IMG/VR virus record: IMGVR_UViG_3300028171_000090
Span: 32,001-96,000 of that record
Length of the DNA stretch: 64,000 nt
From: a virus
Taxonomy: Duplodnaviria; Caudoviricetes
Strand: one strand, 5' to 3'
In this document: piece by piece, positions 1,401-32,009 of the stretch
Numbering within the stretch: position 1 is the first letter of the stretch
Layout of the letters: every line of letters starts with the position of its first letter
Made by a program: the position numbers and the translations under genes
The notes under the pieces: generated by a model
Told to the model about the DNA's origin: nothing
The model's input: the letters and a program-made list of their open reading frames with translations, nothing else
Database searches by the model: none

Positions 1401-1435
1401 GAAATAAAACGAGTGTAGGCTCTATGCCTACACTC
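1401..1435 (-). terminator. Intrinsic terminator ending the rSAM accessory unit
   Basis: GAGTGTAGGC-N5-GCCTACACTC stem then GTTTTATTTC. Confidence 0.75.
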
Positions 1436-1443
1436 ATTATGTG

Positions 1444-3527: not shown

Positions 3528-3539
3528 TATTAGTATGTT
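3528..3539 (-). promoter_or_regulatory. Putative late promoter AACA-N6-TA for the rSAM gene
   Basis: AACATACTAATA between upstream terminator and rSAM RBS. Confidence 0.6.
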
Positions 3540-3544
3540 GCACA

Positions 3545-3583
3545 TAATAAGAAATGACAGGATAAGCCGAAGCTTATCCCATC
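3545..3583 (-). terminator. Intrinsic terminator (UUCG loop)
   Basis: Minus strand GATGGGATAAGC-TTCG-GCTTATCCTGTC then ATTTCTTATT. Confidence 0.75.
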
Positions 3584-4148: not shown

Positions 4149-5591
4149 TTAGAATTTAGCGATTCCGCTACTTCCTACATTGTATACTGGTCTAGAGTAG
4201 TTAACGCTCATTGCTGTACCTGAGCAAGAACCTGTACAACTTGTACATCCTGAAGAACATGCTCCAGAACATCCACCTGTACATCCGCCAGAACAAGAGC
4301 TACCACAACCACCAGAACAATCACTACCACAAGTTGAAGAACAAGACGTGCTACAGCCTGTACTACATGTACCCACACAACCACCAGTACATGAGCTTAC
4401 GCAGCTACCTGTACATGATGATGTACATCCTGTACTACATCCGCCAGTACATCCACTGTTACATGCTGTTGAACAACCTGAAGCACAGTTACCGGCACAC
4501 CCTGTAGAACATGTGCTTGCACAGTTACCTGTACATGAACCAGTACATCCGCCAGTACAGTTTGTCGCACAACCTCCAGAGCACGTTCCTGTACATCCAC
4601 CAGAACAAGATGATCCACATCCGCCTGTACATGTACTACCACAAGAACTTGTACAATAAGCGGAACATCCTCCAGAACAAGAACCTCCACAGCCACCTGT
4701 ACAAGCTGAGTGACATGCTCCAGTACATACGCCAGAACCACAAGCAGAACCACAGTTACCGTGACATGTTCCACCACAGTCACCTTGACATGTGTTATTA
4801 CATGAAGAACCACAACCAGTACATCCACCGGAACAACCTGAGGAACAAGAACCACCGCAACCACCGATACAGCTTGTTGAACATCCCGCAGAACATCCAC
4901 TTACGCAACCTGTTGCACATCCTCCGCCACATGTACCTGAGCATGTTCCTGAACATCCACCTGTACATGTTGATTGACATCCACCAGCACAGCCAGTTGA
5001 ACATCCACCTGAGCACGTTCCAGAACATGAAGAACATCCACTAGAACAGTTACCAGAACATCCAGAAGAACAGTCAGCCGCACAGTTTGCAGAACAGCTA
5101 CCAGAACATCCGCCTGAACATCCACCAGAACAGTTACCTGTACAAGATGAGCTACAGCTAGTAGAACACCCACCAGAACAACTTCCTGAACATCCACCAG
5201 TACATGAGCTTGTACAACCAGTAGCACAGCCACCGCCACATGTACCTGAACAAGAACCTACGCACCCACCAACGCATGATGTACTACATAAACCAGTACA
5301 TGCACCGTTACATGAGTTACCGCCGTCTTGCTTCGAGTTTTTCAATTTATACGTAGTCGCTGCCATTTCATCCACTTCAACCATTTCTGCTTGATCTTTT
5401 GCTAATGGTTTATCGAAGTGTTTGACTTGGTCAATCGCGTCCGCCATTTCATCATAATGAACATCTTCTACAAGTTCACTTGATGTAGCTTCAGGTTTAT
5501 AGTTAGGGACTGTATTTGTTCTACTACGTCTTCCTAACTCCTGCATGACGCTCAATTTCAGTTCTCTGAAATCCTCATCAGAAATAAACAT
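4149..5591 (-). CDS. Giant Cys-rich CXXX-repeat protein (likely rSAM substrate): 93-aa leader + 92 Cys units + 21-aa tail
   Basis: Counted 92 cysteines from residue 94 to 459, nearly all CXXX with G/S/T/A fillers; starts CNGACTGLCSTSC; GAGGAGGG RBS. Confidence 0.9.
   Translation of the reverse strand: MFISDEDFRELKLSVMQELGRRSRTNTVPNYKPEATSSELVEDVHYDEMADAIDQVKHFDKPLAKDQAEMVEVDEMAATTYKLKNSKQDGGNSCNGACTGLCSTSCVGGCVGSCSGTCGGGCATGCTSSCTGGCSGSCSGGCSTSCSSSCTGNCSGGCSGGCSGSCSANCAADCSSGCSGNCSSGCSSCSGTCSGGCSTGCAGGCQSTCTGGCSGTCSGTCGGGCATGCVSGCSAGCSTSCIGGCGGSCSSGCSGGCTGCGSSCNNTCQGDCGGTCHGNCGSACGSGVCTGACHSACTGGCGGSCSGGCSAYCTSSCGSTCTGGCGSSCSGGCTGTCSGGCATNCTGGCTGSCTGNCASTCSTGCAGNCASGCSTACNSGCTGGCSTGCTSSCTGSCVSSCTGGCVGTCSTGCSTSCSSTCGSDCSGGCGSSCSGGCTGGCSGACSSGCTSCTGSCSGTAMSVNYSRPVYNVGSSGIAKF
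4215..5312 (-). repeat. Degenerate 12-nt coding tandem repeat (CXXX x92)
   Basis: Recurring ACA/GCA every 12 nt on plus strand; register breaks at 3 CXX units and 1 CXXXX unit. Confidence 0.9.
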
Positions 5592-5621
5592 GTAATTCCC
5601 TCCTCTTCGTATATGCTAAGT

Positions 5622-6848
5622 CTATTTTTGTCGTCTATGGTATACACCAATGCCGACAGGTGTTACTTGTATATAGTCAACGGATAATTTGTAAGCAGGC
5701 GATGTATTAACAGTGTTAACTTCAATACGAAGCACGTCATTATAAGAACGTTCCCCTGTATATTCACACCCTACAAATATCGTTGTATATAGGTCTTTTG
5801 TATTTAACTCTTTTGGAGCAAATGCTACTCGACCAATTTCTTCTACCGTGATATTCGTTCCCATGGTAGTATTAATATATTGCTGAGGCATCTTCAGTTT
5901 CTTTATGGATATGTATATATCCTGAGTCGTTACAGCAATATCAGAAACTTTTAAACGTACGCCAATAGAATATACCCCAAACTTCATTGGCTTTGTATAA
6001 CATACAGCATAGTTTGTAATTGCTTTACCGTTTGTTGCAAGAGGGTCATCAACAATATGTTTCCCGTTGTAATAGTCATCACCTGGGAAGTATTCTGATA
6101 CACCTCTGTACACTGGACGATAATCCTCTACTAAGTAATCTGGAACTTGATAAATTTGAACTTCCGTAATGATATACTTAGCCGCAGTTTTACGCCCTTG
6201 ACCTAATTGTAATATAGGTCGAATAAAATTAGTTTTAGCCCATTCTTTTAATGTATTCGTAGTGTAGTTATTCTCATAAGCAAAGTTATCTTTGTCATTA
6301 TATACACCAGAGATTTCGAATGGTTGATTTGGTTTTACAAGTGTTGTACCTAACACTTGCGAAGTCTTTCCGTTAAAGTCTTGTGCTGATTGTGTCATTG
6401 CTTGATCTTTAAAGAAATCAACACGTAGACCGCAAGTACCTTCACCTTCTAAACAGAAGCCTTTGACTTTAAAATAGTATTCCGTTGTCCGTGATACAGA
6501 CAGCGGTATGTTTAGTGGTACTGACATAGCTGAAGTTCCAGCCATATCGATTTGTGTACCTTTCCCTTTTTCTAATGCGTCAACCCATTTGGTTGTCACA
6601 TCTGTAGGAGTTGATACATAACGTACCCAATCACCATGACCCAAAAGTAAATGCGGGTTTTGGAATGGGTATCGGCTAATCATTTCATTAATACGGTTTT
6701 CATTTTCTACTGTTTTTGATAAGTTCTTATTATTTGATCTTACGTAGAAATGACCAGTGTTACGGTCAACCATGAATTCGCCATTCTTTGCATTTGCATT
6801 CATAGAAATTGGCATAGGTATAAATCCAAACCGTGGTTCATTAGCCAT
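5622..6848 (-). CDS. Putative tail/baseplate-associated protein with beta-rich, carbohydrate-binding-like domains
   Basis: 408 aa, beta/aromatic-rich; N-terminus GEFMVDRNTGHFYV resembles GEILRDGKGHFYT of 1..400; function inferred from context. Confidence 0.55.
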   Translation of the reverse strand: MANEPRFGFIPMPISMNANAKNGEFMVDRNTGHFYVRSNNKNLSKTVENENRINEMISRYPFQNPHLLLGHGDWVRYVSTPTDVTTKWVDALEKGKGTQIDMAGTSAMSVPLNIPLSVSRTTEYYFKVKGFCLEGEGTCGLRVDFFKDQAMTQSAQDFNGKTSQVLGTTLVKPNQPFEISGVYNDKDNFAYENNYTTNTLKEWAKTNFIRPILQLGQGRKTAAKYIITEVQIYQVPDYLVEDYRPVYRGVSEYFPGDDYYNGKHIVDDPLATNGKAITNYAVCYTKPMKFGVYSIGVRLKVSDIAVTTQDIYISIKKLKMPQQYINTTMGTNITVEEIGRVAFAPKELNTKDLYTTIFVGCEYTGERSYNDVLRIEVNTVNTSPAYKLSVDYIQVTPVGIGVYHRRQK

Positions 6849-6874
6849 AGAGCTTCACCTCCATAATTTAATCT

Positions 6875-6886
6875 TAATTAGTTGTT
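6875..6886 (-). promoter_or_regulatory. Putative late promoter AACA-N6-TA (408-aa gene, Cys-rich gene, 180-aa gene)
   Basis: AACAACTAATTA upstream of 6848. Confidence 0.6.
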
Positions 6887-6910
6887 TGTTATATGAATCG
6901 GGAGTGGCGG

Positions 6911-6938
6911 TAAAAAGAGAGAGGGATATCCCTCTCTC
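6911..6938 (-). terminator. Terminator formed by a perfect 22-bp palindrome
   Basis: GAGAGAGGGATATCCCTCTCTC then T5 on minus strand. Confidence 0.7.
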
Positions 6939-6941
6939 CTA

Positions 6942-9620
6942 TTAACGTTGTTTCATTGCTTCCGCCATTACAGATAAGTCTAATACAATAACGTTGTTAT
7001 TAAAGACATCTTTATACTTTTCATATAAATCTGGCGGAATGTTTGCTAAGTCAAATGATGGTAATGTTTCGAAATCTGTTAGGATTTGATAGTATTCATC
7101 ACCGACTGTAAGGAATTCCTCACCATCATGTTTCATTTCAGCATCTAATGGCATGTAACGAGTTTGTGACTGTTCCATATCCACGTAGATAATATTTTCA
7201 GGTTTAGTAAGTAATCCACTATACTTGAATGATACATATTTCGGCATTTCTTGAGAACTATCTACGACGTTATGCTTCAGATACTCACGATATAAGTCAT
7301 AGTACATATCAATCATACCAACCATTTCTGGTCCTGTAACATCAGGCTCATCATCTTTAATCTTCTCACCAATCATGAGAGATTTTAGATACACATCGTA
7401 TAAGTCTGGTCCTACATTATAGTTAGGAGAAAACTCCGATACTAATGCAAAACTAGAACGATTTAGATACGTATTAAAATGCTTACGTGAATTTACACTC
7501 CATAACTGTAATCCGTTATTGGTAGGAATCTCATGATAACGGTGAGAGATTCTTCTACCATTTAGATAAAATGTCATAATATTATCATTGAATGGAGCTT
7601 CTATTGTGCCTTTATTTGGTCGTACACGCCCATACTCTTCTACTAATTTCTCGTCATAAATAGCTTTCTGGCAAAATGGTAAAAATTCTATATAAATAAC
7701 TTCACCAATTGTAAAAGCTGCATCAATAGTAAATTTAGGTGTAGTTAAATCATTCATTAAGGTTGGGAATTCAACCGACCAACTATAGTGAGGTAACGTG
7801 CGACCATTTTTATAAATGCGATAATTTTCTTTATCATGTGTAAGATATGCCATCTCAAGTGTCCCATCCACTACTGCACGAGTAGTTTTACCTGGTACAA
7901 CGTATCGAGTAAAGACATTACAGAATGTGTTTACACATTTAAGAATAATCTTATCTGGAAATGTTTGAATTAACATACCATCTGTGCGTTCAGGATATGC
8001 GTAAATCGAATATCCTGAAAACGGATAATATCTTTTCTTAGTTGCATTATACATAAATAATTTAATATAATCCGTATCAAGAAAATCTTTATCCCCTATT
8101 ACGAATGCTTTGACATTAGCAGGGACAGTAACATCTCGTACTGCTACTGTACTATTCATACGCATCATTTCGAATTCGATAATAGATTTTACATTCACTC
8201 TTGATGAACGAATGTATACTAAAGTTTCATCATTCTGATGATAAATCAATGGCTCATCATCACGAATACCATCCACAAATACATTGAATCCAAAGCTTTC
8301 TGGATTTGGGATATTGATAAGAAAATACTGTTGGTCAAAATCTTTGAGCATTGCTGTATCCCATACATCAGAACGGTTATTCATTCGAAGTGCTTTATTG
8401 TAGTCCATTTTAGAAACATCTGCGAACTTGGACTCTGTAATTCTTGTTTTATCTTGTACCGTATCAATGTATTTATTATAGAATTCATAATCATAATTTG
8501 TTATTTCTTTTAGTTTCTTTGCTCGCCACTCAGTGTCATTTAGTTTTGAATCTACTAAATTTTGAGCACTAGTATCGACATTAGATAGAGAAAATTTCGT
8601 GATATATTCTGGAACTTTGTTTCCATCTAAGTCTGCAACGAGGTCTTTTCCATGGTCGGTATCGTACCATAAAACATGGTCCCGATAATCATGGACGTCA
8701 CCAGGCTGTTCCTCGTAGAATATCATAGCAAAGGCTTTGTCTACAGGAAGCGGGTCAATACGAAATACATCAGACGTAATCGCTGTTACACCTAAGTCCG
8801 TATATAAACCATTTGCGAATATCATAACGTTCTCAATATGTACTGGGAACTTATATTCACGTTTACCTTTCACCTTCCGTTGTAAACGGAAATGTTTCGT
8901 ACCTTTTGTTAAAGTTTGAGTCTGTTTCAATGTCGGCATACAGGTTATTTCTATAAGTTTACCAATAGCCGCATTGACGGTAATAACAAACTCATTGCCT
9001 ACTTTGCGGGCGGTAAAATCTGTTGTAAATAAACCATCCACATAACAGAACCAACCAAAGTTTTCAGCATAAGGATGATCCACCATGCTCAGTTTAAATA
9101 CGTTAGTAGTCTTAGACTGTAAGTCTAAGTAATAGTTTCGACGAATAATATGCATCGTTGTAAATACTTCGTATTTATACGGAACACATAAAATTGTGTG
9201 GAAATCTGTAAATACAATTTGGATATCACTAACTGGTATCTTTTTACCATTATGATACATATCAAATGTATACTCGTAGTATTTATTAAATTCACTCAAT
9301 GGAATCAATTGATACTTATCGAATTTGTGTAATAATACATCTTCTTGCGTCTGTTTACGTTCAAACTCTTCTACAAGCTCTAAACCTTGGCAGACAATAA
9401 AGAAGTGGGTAAATGGTTTCCAGTAATAATGTTCTTTATGTTTCACTTGCTCTTTAATCTGGAATCCGTTTTTCTTTACTTCATAGACATCCATACCAAC
9501 ACGTGCATCCTGCACGGTTGATAGGAGACTATAACTGTAATTCATAATAAACTCTTTAACTGTTTCATCTAAAGCTTCTTTACGAATTTGAGCTTTTCGT
9601 TCTCGGGTTAAAAGTTCCAT
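6942..9620 (-). CDS. Large putative virion structural (baseplate-region) protein
   Basis: 892 aa, beta/aromatic-rich, in leftward late module; no catalytic motif seen. Confidence 0.65.
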   Translation of the reverse strand: MELLTRERKAQIRKEALDETVKEFIMNYSYSLLSTVQDARVGMDVYEVKKNGFQIKEQVKHKEHYYWKPFTHFFIVCQGLELVEEFERKQTQEDVLLHKFDKYQLIPLSEFNKYYEYTFDMYHNGKKIPVSDIQIVFTDFHTILCVPYKYEVFTTMHIIRRNYYLDLQSKTTNVFKLSMVDHPYAENFGWFCYVDGLFTTDFTARKVGNEFVITVNAAIGKLIEITCMPTLKQTQTLTKGTKHFRLQRKVKGKREYKFPVHIENVMIFANGLYTDLGVTAITSDVFRIDPLPVDKAFAMIFYEEQPGDVHDYRDHVLWYDTDHGKDLVADLDGNKVPEYITKFSLSNVDTSAQNLVDSKLNDTEWRAKKLKEITNYDYEFYNKYIDTVQDKTRITESKFADVSKMDYNKALRMNNRSDVWDTAMLKDFDQQYFLINIPNPESFGFNVFVDGIRDDEPLIYHQNDETLVYIRSSRVNVKSIIEFEMMRMNSTVAVRDVTVPANVKAFVIGDKDFLDTDYIKLFMYNATKKRYYPFSGYSIYAYPERTDGMLIQTFPDKIILKCVNTFCNVFTRYVVPGKTTRAVVDGTLEMAYLTHDKENYRIYKNGRTLPHYSWSVEFPTLMNDLTTPKFTIDAAFTIGEVIYIEFLPFCQKAIYDEKLVEEYGRVRPNKGTIEAPFNDNIMTFYLNGRRISHRYHEIPTNNGLQLWSVNSRKHFNTYLNRSSFALVSEFSPNYNVGPDLYDVYLKSLMIGEKIKDDEPDVTGPEMVGMIDMYYDLYREYLKHNVVDSSQEMPKYVSFKYSGLLTKPENIIYVDMEQSQTRYMPLDAEMKHDGEEFLTVGDEYYQILTDFETLPSFDLANIPPDLYEKYKDVFNNNVIVLDLSVMAEAMKQR

Positions 9621-9630
9621 ACTAAACCTC

Positions 9631-10596
9631 CTATTGGCTAATAGAGCTAAAGAACGTTCTATACAGTTTATCGATGTCAGCGTCTAACGTATTTTCGATT
9701 ACGTTCTGAACGTTTGTGTATGATCCGATAACAACTGCAAATAAGTTATGGTAGAATGTCGGTAAAAATTCTAGGCTTAGCATCATTGCGGCACCGTAAG
9801 AATTCACGTAGTTATCGACAAATTGTCGAGTTGTTAACTCTCCCATTCCACCTACATTCTCAGCTACAAATTTAATGAATGCATCTAAGTCTTTAAAATG
9901 TTCCTCTGGTTTAATATTACGGTCAATATCATTTACTAGTAATACACCAGATGATTTACAGTTACCGATTGCAAACTTCTTATTCATTTCTTGCATACTT
10001 GGAGAACGGCGTCCCATTACATTATATAAGAAGTAGTACGAAGTCAGATACATTACGATATCTTGACGTTCACGGTTAATACTGATAGAGAACATGCGGT
10101 TGAAAATCTTCAAGCATAGCTTACTAAACATAGATGAAGATAATTGTTGCACTTCAGCTCTCATTGAGATAGCACGATAGTTCTCGTAGCAGCTAATTAA
10201 AGTAGCTCCACATTGTAATAGATAGAATAAATTCTTCGTATCCATTTTAATTTCATTTTCTTTTCCATATGTAGCATGGTTTGAAATGTTTACTACACAT
10301 ACGATTGCTTTACCTGTATTAGCAAGGTAGCAAGGGATAGTCGTTGGAAGGCGATATTGTTTCGCATTCATAACTAACTTAATCTTTCCTTTACGTAAGC
10401 AATCTAATACGAAGTTTTTAGAAGAGTAGTGATAACGACGGTCTATTTCACCGATCATATCTTTGATTTCTGGACGGGCATCCGTAATCAATTCACCTTC
10501 TGTCAGAATACGCATCATCGTTTTTTGTAATTCGATTTGTTTGTCGTATAACTTGAATATATACGTATCAGATATACTTTTTAGCTTGTCAGACAT
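9631..10596 (-). CDS. Hypothetical late protein
   Basis: 321 aa, RBS, late motif at 10623-10634. Confidence 0.7.
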   Translation of the reverse strand: MSDKLKSISDTYIFKLYDKQIELQKTMMRILTEGELITDARPEIKDMIGEIDRRYHYSSKNFVLDCLRKGKIKLVMNAKQYRLPTTIPCYLANTGKAIVCVVNISNHATYGKENEIKMDTKNLFYLLQCGATLISCYENYRAISMRAEVQQLSSSMFSKLCLKIFNRMFSISINRERQDIVMYLTSYYFLYNVMGRRSPSMQEMNKKFAIGNCKSSGVLLVNDIDRNIKPEEHFKDLDAFIKFVAENVGGMGELTTRQFVDNYVNSYGAAMMLSLEFLPTFYHNLFAVVIGSYTNVQNVIENTLDADIDKLYRTFFSSISQ

Positions 10597-31978: not shown

Positions 31979-32009
31979 GCTAACCATAAAGAGAAAGGAG
32001 GAGAAACAC

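Follow-up and report, generated by a model that had tools for sequence, protein, structure and literature searches.

The window analysed here is a stretch of 64,000 nucleotides (nt), positions 32,001 to 96,000 of the IMG/VR virus record IMGVR_UViG_3300028171_000090, a record of 125 kb with an estimated completeness of about half (~51%). On its minus strand lies a gene for a protein in which cysteine (Cys) recurs at almost every fourth residue, together with a gene for a radical S-adenosylmethionine (SAM) enzyme and two genes for small helper proteins. Among members of the phage-specific form of the CXXX-repeat system, this Cys-repeat open reading frame (ORF) stands at the giant and highly regular extreme. 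The features of the locus are listed in table 1.

Table 1. Features of the Cys-repeat locus in the order in which the minus strand is read. aa, amino acids; TPR, tetratricopeptide repeat.
Feature	Position	Strand	Basis and remarks
Late-promoter-like motif AACAACTAATTA	6875..6886	minus	27 nt before the 408-aa gene; pattern search
Tail-fibre-like protein, 408 aa	5622..6848	minus	Directly upstream of the Cys-repeat gene; jackhmmer, AlphaFold2
Cys-repeat gene	4149-5591	minus	One ORF, 480 aa, start ATG at 5591; script count
N-terminal Cys-free domain (residues 1-93)	5313..5591	minus	Leave-one-out profile and AlphaFold2
Cys-repeat region (residues 94-459), 92 units	4215..5312	minus	Direct count; family junction CNGACTGLC at its start
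Cys-free C-terminal tail, 21 aa AMSVNYSRPVYNVGSSGIAKF, and stop codon	4149..4214	minus	ORF translation and count
All-alpha TPR-like protein, 180 aa	3589..4131	minus	17 nt after the Cys-repeat gene, same proposed transcription unit
Intrinsic-terminator-like hairpin, 12 pairs and T-rich tail	3556..3583	minus	End of the proposed 408-aa/Cys-repeat/180-aa unit
Late-promoter-like motif AACATACTAATA	3528..3539	minus	26 nt before the radical SAM gene; pattern search
Radical SAM/SPASM maturase, 445 aa	2165..3502	minus	TIGR04115; two genes downstream of the Cys-repeat gene
Helper, 123 aa	1771..2142	minus	Divergent relative of TIGR04116 ('CXXX repeat peptide modification system protein'); phage helper profile, E 4.5e-14
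Late-promoter-like motif of the 95-aa helper	1756-1767	minus	Pattern search
Second helper copy, 95 aa	1444..1731	minus	Shorter, more divergent; hmmsearch, E 3.2e-7; full-length in alignment A4
Bidirectional terminator-like hairpin	1408-1438		After the 95-aa helper gene

The start codon of the Cys-repeat ORF (ATG at 5591) is preceded at the usual distance by GAGGAGGG. The first Cys of the 480-aa protein is residue 94, which leaves a Cys-free head of 93 aa (script count). There are 92 Cys in total, separated by 87 spacings of four residues, three of three and one of five. The short spacings fall at units 24, 42 and 90 (CSS, CTG and CTS) and the long one at unit 49 (CGSGV). The last Cys is followed by 24 residues; if the final CSGT is taken as unit 92, the tally becomes 88 CXXX, three CXX and one CXXXX, and the tail is 21 aa long. 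The count agrees with the initial annotation of this DNA, which had described a 93-aa leader, 92 Cys units with breaks and a 21-aa tail. Cys makes up 25% of the 366-aa core, and the X positions of the repeat are nearly exclusively G, S, T, A and N. By direct count the protein contains no CC or CXC motif, the minimum Cys-Cys spacing being 3, and no enrichment in His or Asp was seen.

Among curated families, the protein matches phrog_6085 (E 1e-23), a group of relatives of unassigned function. The TIGR04114 repeat model, which covers 18 positions, scores 8.1 bits against a cut-off of 20. No Pfam match was obtained for this protein or for 26 family members, the Pfam set used being possibly one without PF27846. 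It had also been proposed that the protein is far longer than typical peptide precursors, and this is borne out within its own family: for the best 150 family representatives the medians are 200 aa and 21 Cys, and none has more than 63 Cys. Family members as a whole carry 10-126 Cys (median 21), so that the window protein has about four times the median. Four further giants, with 122-126, 96, 95 and 95 Cys (loci L077, L119, L108 and L092), show that it is unusually long, not unique.

The radical SAM gene encodes a complete member of TIGR04115, the 'radical SAM peptide maturase, CXXX-repeat target family', with a score of 434.4 bits (cut-off 350) over profile positions 1-359 of 359. The CX3CX2C motif (C53, C57, C60) and the SPASM cysteines C297, C315, C365, C368, C374, C377 and C396 are invariant in the family alignment (A1), and the Pfam domains Radical_SAM, Fer4_12 and SPASM are all matched. 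The closest solved structure is CteB (5WGG/5WHY; E 8e-26). The alignment starts at CteB residue 77; the recognition part that CteB has at its N-terminus is thus lacking in this maturase. Secondary matches include PapB, the best of them (206 bits, cut-off 340), TIGR04463 (85 bits), QhpD, CcpM and SCIFF (cut-off 425); the enzyme falls below the cut-offs of PapB and SCIFF and is thus a member of neither. The anaerobic sulfatase maturase family scores 70 bits. A gene for the second maturase of the CXXX-repeat system, TIGR04119, was not found in the 125-kb, half-complete record, where that model matched only the SPASM part of the TIGR04115 gene (35 bits, cut-off 150).

Both small proteins encoded downstream score below the curated TIGR04116 cut-off. 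The profile of their family (alignment A4), compared by hhalign with a bona fide TIGR04116 member, gave 96% (E 3.6e-9), and five of 33 helper family members match TIGR04116 directly. Through these profile comparisons, the homology of both window helpers to TIGR04116 is shown indirectly.

The association of these genes was examined by scanning viral contigs with the maturase alignment, which gave at least 359 relatives, 80 of which were fetched. The set of 84 loci consists of viral contigs and three records of a phage collection, all chosen solely by their maturase relative. A Cys-repeat ORF lies within 6 kb of the maturase in 83 of these 84 loci, and 82 have a helper of about 100 aa; the helper is duplicated in the window and occurs as a single copy in most related loci. 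A comparable set from cellular genomes has a Cys-repeat ORF within this distance of the maturase in 78 of 80 loci. On the basis of this linkage, the Cys-repeat protein is very probably the substrate of the adjacent CXXX-repeat maturase. One irregularity was noted in loci L002/L004, where one of two TIGR04115-like maturase genes (6019-7227) is interrupted by a short gap that leaves ORFs of 208 and 181 aa. A frameshift, a pseudogene or an intervening element could account for it, and an intact second copy follows.

The head of the protein corresponds to a helical domain of about 105 aa that is conserved in the phage family (hereafter the N-domain). Residues 1-102 score 47.6 bits on a leave-one-out profile, and the Cys-free residues 1-93 alone 26.5 bits. 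AlphaFold2 predicts helices at residues 5-25, 43-56 and 67-83 with pLDDT values (predicted local distance difference test) of 60-83. In most related proteins the shared domain ends in the junction C-x-x-x-C-T-G-L-C, which reads CNGACTGLC here. Judged by profile and predicted fold, the window head is a divergent but clear member of the N-domain family. Searched against 1.84 billion representative proteins, the N-domain profile retrieved 657 clusters at E <= 1e-3. A word-indexed homologue search with residues 1-110 and shorter segments gave no match, a blank that reflects the sensitivity limit of such searches, given the result of the full profile. There was likewise no match by tblastn of the whole Cys-repeat protein against the phage collection, or by megablast of 12 kb. 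In the ESM Atlas, clusters of such proteins are 67-89% viral, and PF27846 is found in 24-42% of the members of neighbouring clusters.

The position of the N-domain is not fixed. It stands at the C-terminal end, after the repeat, in loci L011, L012, L015 and L016; a folded and conserved head that is sometimes C-terminal is not the short leader of a ribosomally synthesized, post-translationally modified peptide (RiPP). Other relatives carry additional domains: in L079, two PF12810 (ALK/LTK-type glycine-rich) domains lie C-terminal to the repeat, and in the natural protein P0005 a single chain comprises N-domain, 30 Cys and helper. The L053 and L070 clades have variable C-terminal domains of ~140-190 aa, which are separate genes directly downstream in sister contigs. 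General scans with Pfam, NCBIfam and PHROGs, which did not include a search aimed at these functions, revealed no protease, exporter or signal peptide in the cassette. The C-terminal N-domains, the extra distal domains, the P0005 fusion and the absence of a noticeable protease or exporter speak for the phage form being a lasting protein of several domains rather than a RiPP precursor that is cleaved.

Within the L053-L072 clade (IMG/VR 3300045988 contigs), near-identical 62-Cys proteins bear at least three different C-terminal domains. Such cassette-like variation is typical of host-range determinants. The C-terminal domain of the relative L053 gave no usable match in the ESM Atlas.

The phage-type N-domain also occurs in 32 of the cellular loci; the named ones are nearly all Bacillota, including gut and soil genomes, where the domain may lie in prophages. 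Most of the other cellular loci, mainly from Bacteroidota and Ignavibacteria, encode a short leader with a twin-arginine-like motif (scored by a crude pattern) and 8-47 Cys, and several precursor genes are often present. Only in locus L006 was the canonical set (TIGR04115, TIGR04119 and TIGR04116 beside TatA/TatC) confirmed. A twin-arginine-like export motif is absent from the window head. The phage form is thus marked by a folded N-domain, no TIGR04119, no export signal and a context of fibre genes.

The DNA of the repeat units is just 60-83% alike. Cys is almost always encoded by TGT, and the Gly, Ser and Thr codons are variable across units. The periodicity is therefore maintained at the protein level and does not stem from recent tandem amplification. 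The ORF is reproduced without substitution or indel in contigs of three other sequencing runs from other samples, one of which carries eight substitutions elsewhere within 12 kb. Assembly thus did not create the repeat, and in these populations the number of units is stable.

A block duplication had been proposed from a 13-mer, CSGTCGGGCATGC, that occurs twice. The recurrence is real, the copies starting at residue 114 (units 6-9) and residue 217 (units 32-35). Support for the duplication drawn from it is weak, such a repeat arising also in 33 of 500 composition-preserving shuffles. A second 13-mer pair (residues 323 and 427) has the identical offset of 26 units, and unit similarity at this offset stands out among 60 offsets (z = 3.2). 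Silent-site identity at the same offset is not raised (z = -0.8), and a recent block duplication was rejected for lack of this excess. The 26-unit signal may reflect either an ancient duplication of about 26 units or chance.

The breaks at units 24, 42, 49 and 90 are irregular and do not recur 26 units apart. Family members differ widely in the fraction of CXX units, with values between 0 and 0.63 (0.03 in the window protein), and the spacing strings are wholly different between lineages. One clade of close relatives has kept the Cys number (62) and most break positions, and every spacing string inspected among members of the N-domain type opens with four regular CXXX units. The breaks look like lineage-specific single-codon indels rather than designed punctuation. 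Their interpretation as module marks was not upheld, as irregular positions differ over the family and are common to close sister phages only. A solenoid was also suggested; AlphaFold2, run with a 26-sequence family alignment, gave residues 88-480 a pLDDT of 31-47 and no secondary structure, which speaks against it, although an ordered modified state is conceivable. A Foldseek search of this model against BFVD returned two family members only and no annotated fold.

The window genome is that of an AR9-like jumbo phage, because it encodes a homologue of the AR9 virion protein g281 (a 321-aa gene at 9631-10596; E 8e-19) and has AR9-type late motifs before ORF starts. The AR9 late-promoter consensus is AACA-(6N)-TA/G (PMC5312081), and a motif of this type is found 25-38 nt before six minus-strand ORF starts (10634, 6886, 3539, 1767, 1400 and 438). 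The loose pattern AACA-N6-TW is not enriched over the window (109 found versus 162 expected), and what counts is solely where the motif stands, before ORF starts. Nor is there an excess of Sigma-70-type promoters (36 found versus 47.6 expected). The motif at 6875..6886 is presumed to start the transcript carrying the Cys-repeat gene. Together with the hairpins at 3583-3556 and 1438-1408, the late motifs suggest three transcription units: the 408-aa, Cys-repeat and 180-aa genes; the radical SAM and 123-aa genes; and the 95-aa gene. Inside the Cys-repeat ORF itself, at 5411-5422 on the minus strand (about codons 57-60 of the N-domain), lies an exact match to the AR9 late promoter, AACACTTCGATA; internal late promoters have been reported in AR9 (PMC5312081).

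The stretch is present in 21 soil metatranscriptome runs, in contigs that reach 116 kb. Contigs of RNA runs in two studies end near the bidirectional terminator, and a DNA-run contig continues beyond it. These ends are a weak hint of real transcripts, DNA carry-over being possible.

The C-terminal ~150 aa of the 408-aa protein are predicted as a beta-sandwich of the carbohydrate-binding module (CBM) type, residues 275-397 having a pLDDT of 70-88. VIA-align gave Z scores of 8-10 to CBM15, CBM22 and CBM4 and of 9.1 to a baseplate chain of phage phi812. According to jackhmmer, the gene that immediately precedes the Cys-repeat gene also encodes this domain in 27 related viral loci. On the other side, the ESM Atlas model of the 180-aa protein (predicted template modelling score, pTM, 0.85) has a TM score of ~0.5 to TPR families. 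A gene of ~150-200 aa recurs at this position in other loci with unrelated sequences. No relatives of the 180-aa gene were found by jackhmmer against all locus ORFs or with the profile of one cluster of positional analogues, and hhalign among all such clusters gave nothing above 50%.

Beside the g281 homologue, an 892-aa ORF (6942-9620, minus strand) occupies the position of AR9 g280, a hypothetical protein of 850 aa. It has no match in the phage collection (tblastn), Pfam, NCBIfam or PHROGs and no detectable similarity to g280. Elsewhere in the window, more than 20 consecutive ORFs of ~150-220 aa lie on the plus strand between 40000 and 58700; this run looks like arrays of paralogues.

The locus can be compared with several known systems. 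The CXXX-repeat system of NCBIfam, defined by comparative genomics, comprises the maturase TIGR04115, the helper TIGR04116, the second maturase TIGR04119 and the targets TIGR04114/04117/04118 (PF27846). The window shares with it a maturase over the cut-off, Cys at every fourth residue, a TIGR04116-homologous helper and tight linkage. The cellular form differs in its targets, which have a twin-arginine-like leader of 45-75 aa and 8-47 Cys, whereas the window target has 480 aa and a folded N-domain of ~100 aa. It differs also in its surroundings, with a TatA/TatC export locus in L006 and, in the window, a phage late/fibre operon with a duplicated helper below the cut-off and no TIGR04119 in the record.

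Phage Cys-repeat cassettes are known from cultured jumbo phages, Erwinia phage phiEaH2 and its relatives and the Salmonella SPN3US-like phages (PHROG 6085, PHROG 1802), in which proteins with Cys every 3-4 residues are encoded just upstream of radical SAM genes and beside virion structural genes. These proteins are much smaller (127-155 aa, 15-21 Cys) and are present as two or three copies accompanied by two radical SAM genes; their maturase is only 27% identical to that of the window. The region 5096-5895 of phiEaH2 (JX316028; locus L007) contains two such ORFs, of 127 and 155 aa, whose N-terminal parts are fibre-like. The GenBank annotation gives shorter hypothetical proteins of 44 and 81 aa, and their starts seem to have been called too late.

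Among characterized enzymes, PapB (freyrasin, a ranthipeptide) forms rings over C-X3-D, a span equal to one CXXX unit. The substrates of PapB and CteB are peptides of less than 60 aa with acidic acceptors and cleaved leaders, and CteB has the N-terminal recognition domain that the window maturase lacks. Ranthipeptide and sactipeptide RiPPs in general derive from a short precursor, unlike the 480-aa protein of the window, and neither protease nor transporter was noticed among the cassette genes. CrpC of Methanococcus voltae, a SPASM enzyme of family TIGR04463, installs ranthionine thioethers on CrpA, a Cys-rich protein of 29 kDa (Dieter et al. 2026, PMC13692751). The N-terminal part of CrpA engages CrpC, and the rings lie within motifs of 4-5 residues (PMC13692751). 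The resemblance to the window lies in a protein as substrate, N-terminal engagement of the enzyme (here proposed), Cys-led motifs of 4-5 residues and a repeat modelled by AlphaFold with low confidence. CrpC, however, belongs to another maturase family and has its own recognition domain; CrpA has ten 17-residue repeats with C-X-X-Q/D acceptors and no bare CXXX ladder, and the pair is archaeal and cellular, not viral.

Low-complexity periodic segments of variable copy number are also known from collagen-like GXY fibre stalks, and periodic segments from disulfide-laddered beta-helix antifreeze proteins. In the Cys-repeat family, too, the periodic part follows an anchoring domain, precedes a distal domain in some relatives and varies greatly in copy number. 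These are analogies only: the window protein has no sequence or predicted-fold relation to either, its periodic residue is Cys, and it comes with a dedicated enzyme.

On balance, we favour the view that the Cys-repeat protein is a fibre-associated structural protein cross-linked, probably through thioethers, by the adjacent maturase, and we regard this as somewhat better than an even proposition. Late in infection, the phage's own RNA polymerase would transcribe the unit of 408-aa, Cys-repeat and 180-aa genes, and a second unit would supply the maturase and the helper(s). The N-domain would dock maturase and helper, the latter replacing the recognition domain missing from the maturase; a docking role, as opposed to that of a cleaved leader, is proposed because the domain is conserved and sometimes C-terminal. 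The maturase would then proceed along the 92 Cys units, spending one SAM on each and converting the thiols into intramolecular cross-links. Docking and unit-by-unit stapling are suggested by the analogy with CrpC. A predicted complex of the N-domain with the 123-aa helper scored 0.01, which was counted neither for nor against binding. The cross-links would most likely be thioethers in small rings, as with PapB, CteB, QhpD and CrpC, because the nearest named relatives of the enzyme (PapB, QhpD, CcpM and SCIFF/CteB) all make intramolecular Cys-to-carbon thioethers. The product would remain an uncleaved protein, a stapled and reduction-resistant thread or stalk in or on the host-recognition apparatus of the phage; a possible rationale is that thioethers can form in the reducing cytoplasm, which does not allow disulfides, and persist outside. 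A role in the fibre is proposed because of the CBM-like upstream gene in 27 loci, the g281 homologue and the late motifs at 6886 and 3539.

The length of such a stalk would be set by the number of units. The initial annotation had likewise suggested that repeat number may set fibre length, which is compatible with the tail-fibre context; its interpretation as a whole is partly supported. The more specific picture of a chain of up to about 90-120 consecutive small thioether rings, forming a stalk of adjustable length that resists proteases and reduction, with the N-domain as a handle for a helper and maturase acting in trans, is tentative, and we give it rather less than an even chance.

Several observations weigh against the favoured interpretation. 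Over 2,452 units, the share of residues other than Gly is 87% at X1, 56% at X2 and 72% at X3, Pro being virtually absent; Gly thus occurs at all three X positions, and there is no side-chain acceptor at a fixed offset for every unit, so the acceptor position cannot be deduced. Our literature search gave no experimental paper on the chemistry of TIGR04115 or on phage Cys-repeat proteins, and the chemistry is therefore extrapolated from relatives. A location in the virion is suggested by gene neighbourhood and by the fusions seen in relatives; the window protein itself bears no additional distal domain, the 180-aa protein encoded next to it is helical and without a binding-type beta domain, and the CBM-like match is of middling strength (Z 8-10). 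Contigs from RNA libraries that span up to 116 kb may stem from DNA carry-over and are thus no proof of transcription.

The protein might be a genuine substrate of the maturase and yet undergo another chemistry, leading to formylglycine-like aldehydes, epimerisation, or carbon-carbon or intermolecular links. This might yield a material that is reactive or cross-linked between molecules and that, for instance, joins fibre subunits. SPASM enzymes are diverse, the match to the anaerobic sulfatase maturase family (70 bits) points in this direction, no X position always bears a side chain and no TIGR04115 product has been characterized. We nevertheless consider such an outcome unlikely, since intramolecular thioethers are formed by all of the closest named families and by the enzyme of the closest solved structure, and the unit of 3-4 residues matches the ring sizes of PapB and CrpC. 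Cross-linking could also serve a natural product of the RiPP type, the head being cut off and the modified core, entire or in fragments, set free on lysis as a peptide that acts against microbes, in signalling or as a metal scavenger to the benefit of the phage or its host population. The maturase family is defined as a peptide maturase, its relatives PapB, CteB and CcpM make RiPPs, head, core and short tail are arranged like leader, core and follower, and the cellular versions with short twin-arginine-like leaders are evidently exported. A core of 366 aa with 92 Cys is, however, far beyond any RiPP. The head is a conserved folded domain that is C-terminal in some relatives, others are fused to large C-terminal domains, the late unit is shared with a fibre-like gene, and the general library scans, not aimed at such functions, brought no protease, transporter or immunity gene to notice in the cassette. 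A released peptide therefore seems distinctly unlikely.

If the protein is modified, it need not reach the virion: it might act only in the infected cell, as a scaffold or chaperone of the fibre or as a redox or sulfur sink. The TPR-like 180-aa neighbour resembles a chaperone or scaffold more than a fibre part, and the 892-aa gene at the g280 position has no similarity to g280, which is itself called 'hypothetical protein' and not 'virion protein' in AR9. Relatives in which the repeat is fused to distal binding-type domains, some of them variable, and the consistent location of the gene directly after fibre-like genes make this quite improbable. The remaining alternative dispenses with the enzyme. 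Free thiolates would bind Zn, Cu, Fe or Fe-S clusters in a filament akin to metallothionein, with the breaks as its turns or modules and the radical SAM protein in a minor or unrelated role. Such a metal-thiolate filament had been put forward in the initial annotation, and it accords with a core of 25% Cys and otherwise small residues; the CrpA cluster is moreover induced on pyrite and lies near a copper-binding gene (PMC13692751). As a primary reading it gives way to enzymatic modification of Cys, to which the dedicated CXXX-repeat maturase two genes away points. Linkage to maturase and helper is near-obligate (83 of 84 and 78 of 80 loci for the maturase), the protein has neither CC/CXC motifs nor an enrichment in His or Asp, AlphaFold2 yields no ordered solenoid, and the breaks are irregular and unconserved. 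We regard the metal filament as very improbable.

The CXXX-repeat system is already catalogued in family databases, and our literature search found no report of its product, chemistry or function. Particular to the window are the size and regularity of the substrate, the AR9-like genome with recognizable late motifs and the duplicated helper; the linkage of the genes extends over hundreds of loci. For a reaction that runs to completion, a mass shift of about -184 Da and the loss of 92 alkylatable thiols are predicted, and the size of the family (657 clusters, at least 359 viral contigs and the Bacillota instances) offers many alternatives for expression.

If the protein is indeed a cross-linked component of the fibre, it would bring a new post-translational chemistry into phage structural biology, as the first case of enzymatic carbon-sulfur cross-linking of a virion protein. 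It would also be a new kind of protein polymer, a natural polypeptide that is covalently stapled and programmable in length. Phages would then be using radical SAM chemistry of the antibiotic type as a structural material.

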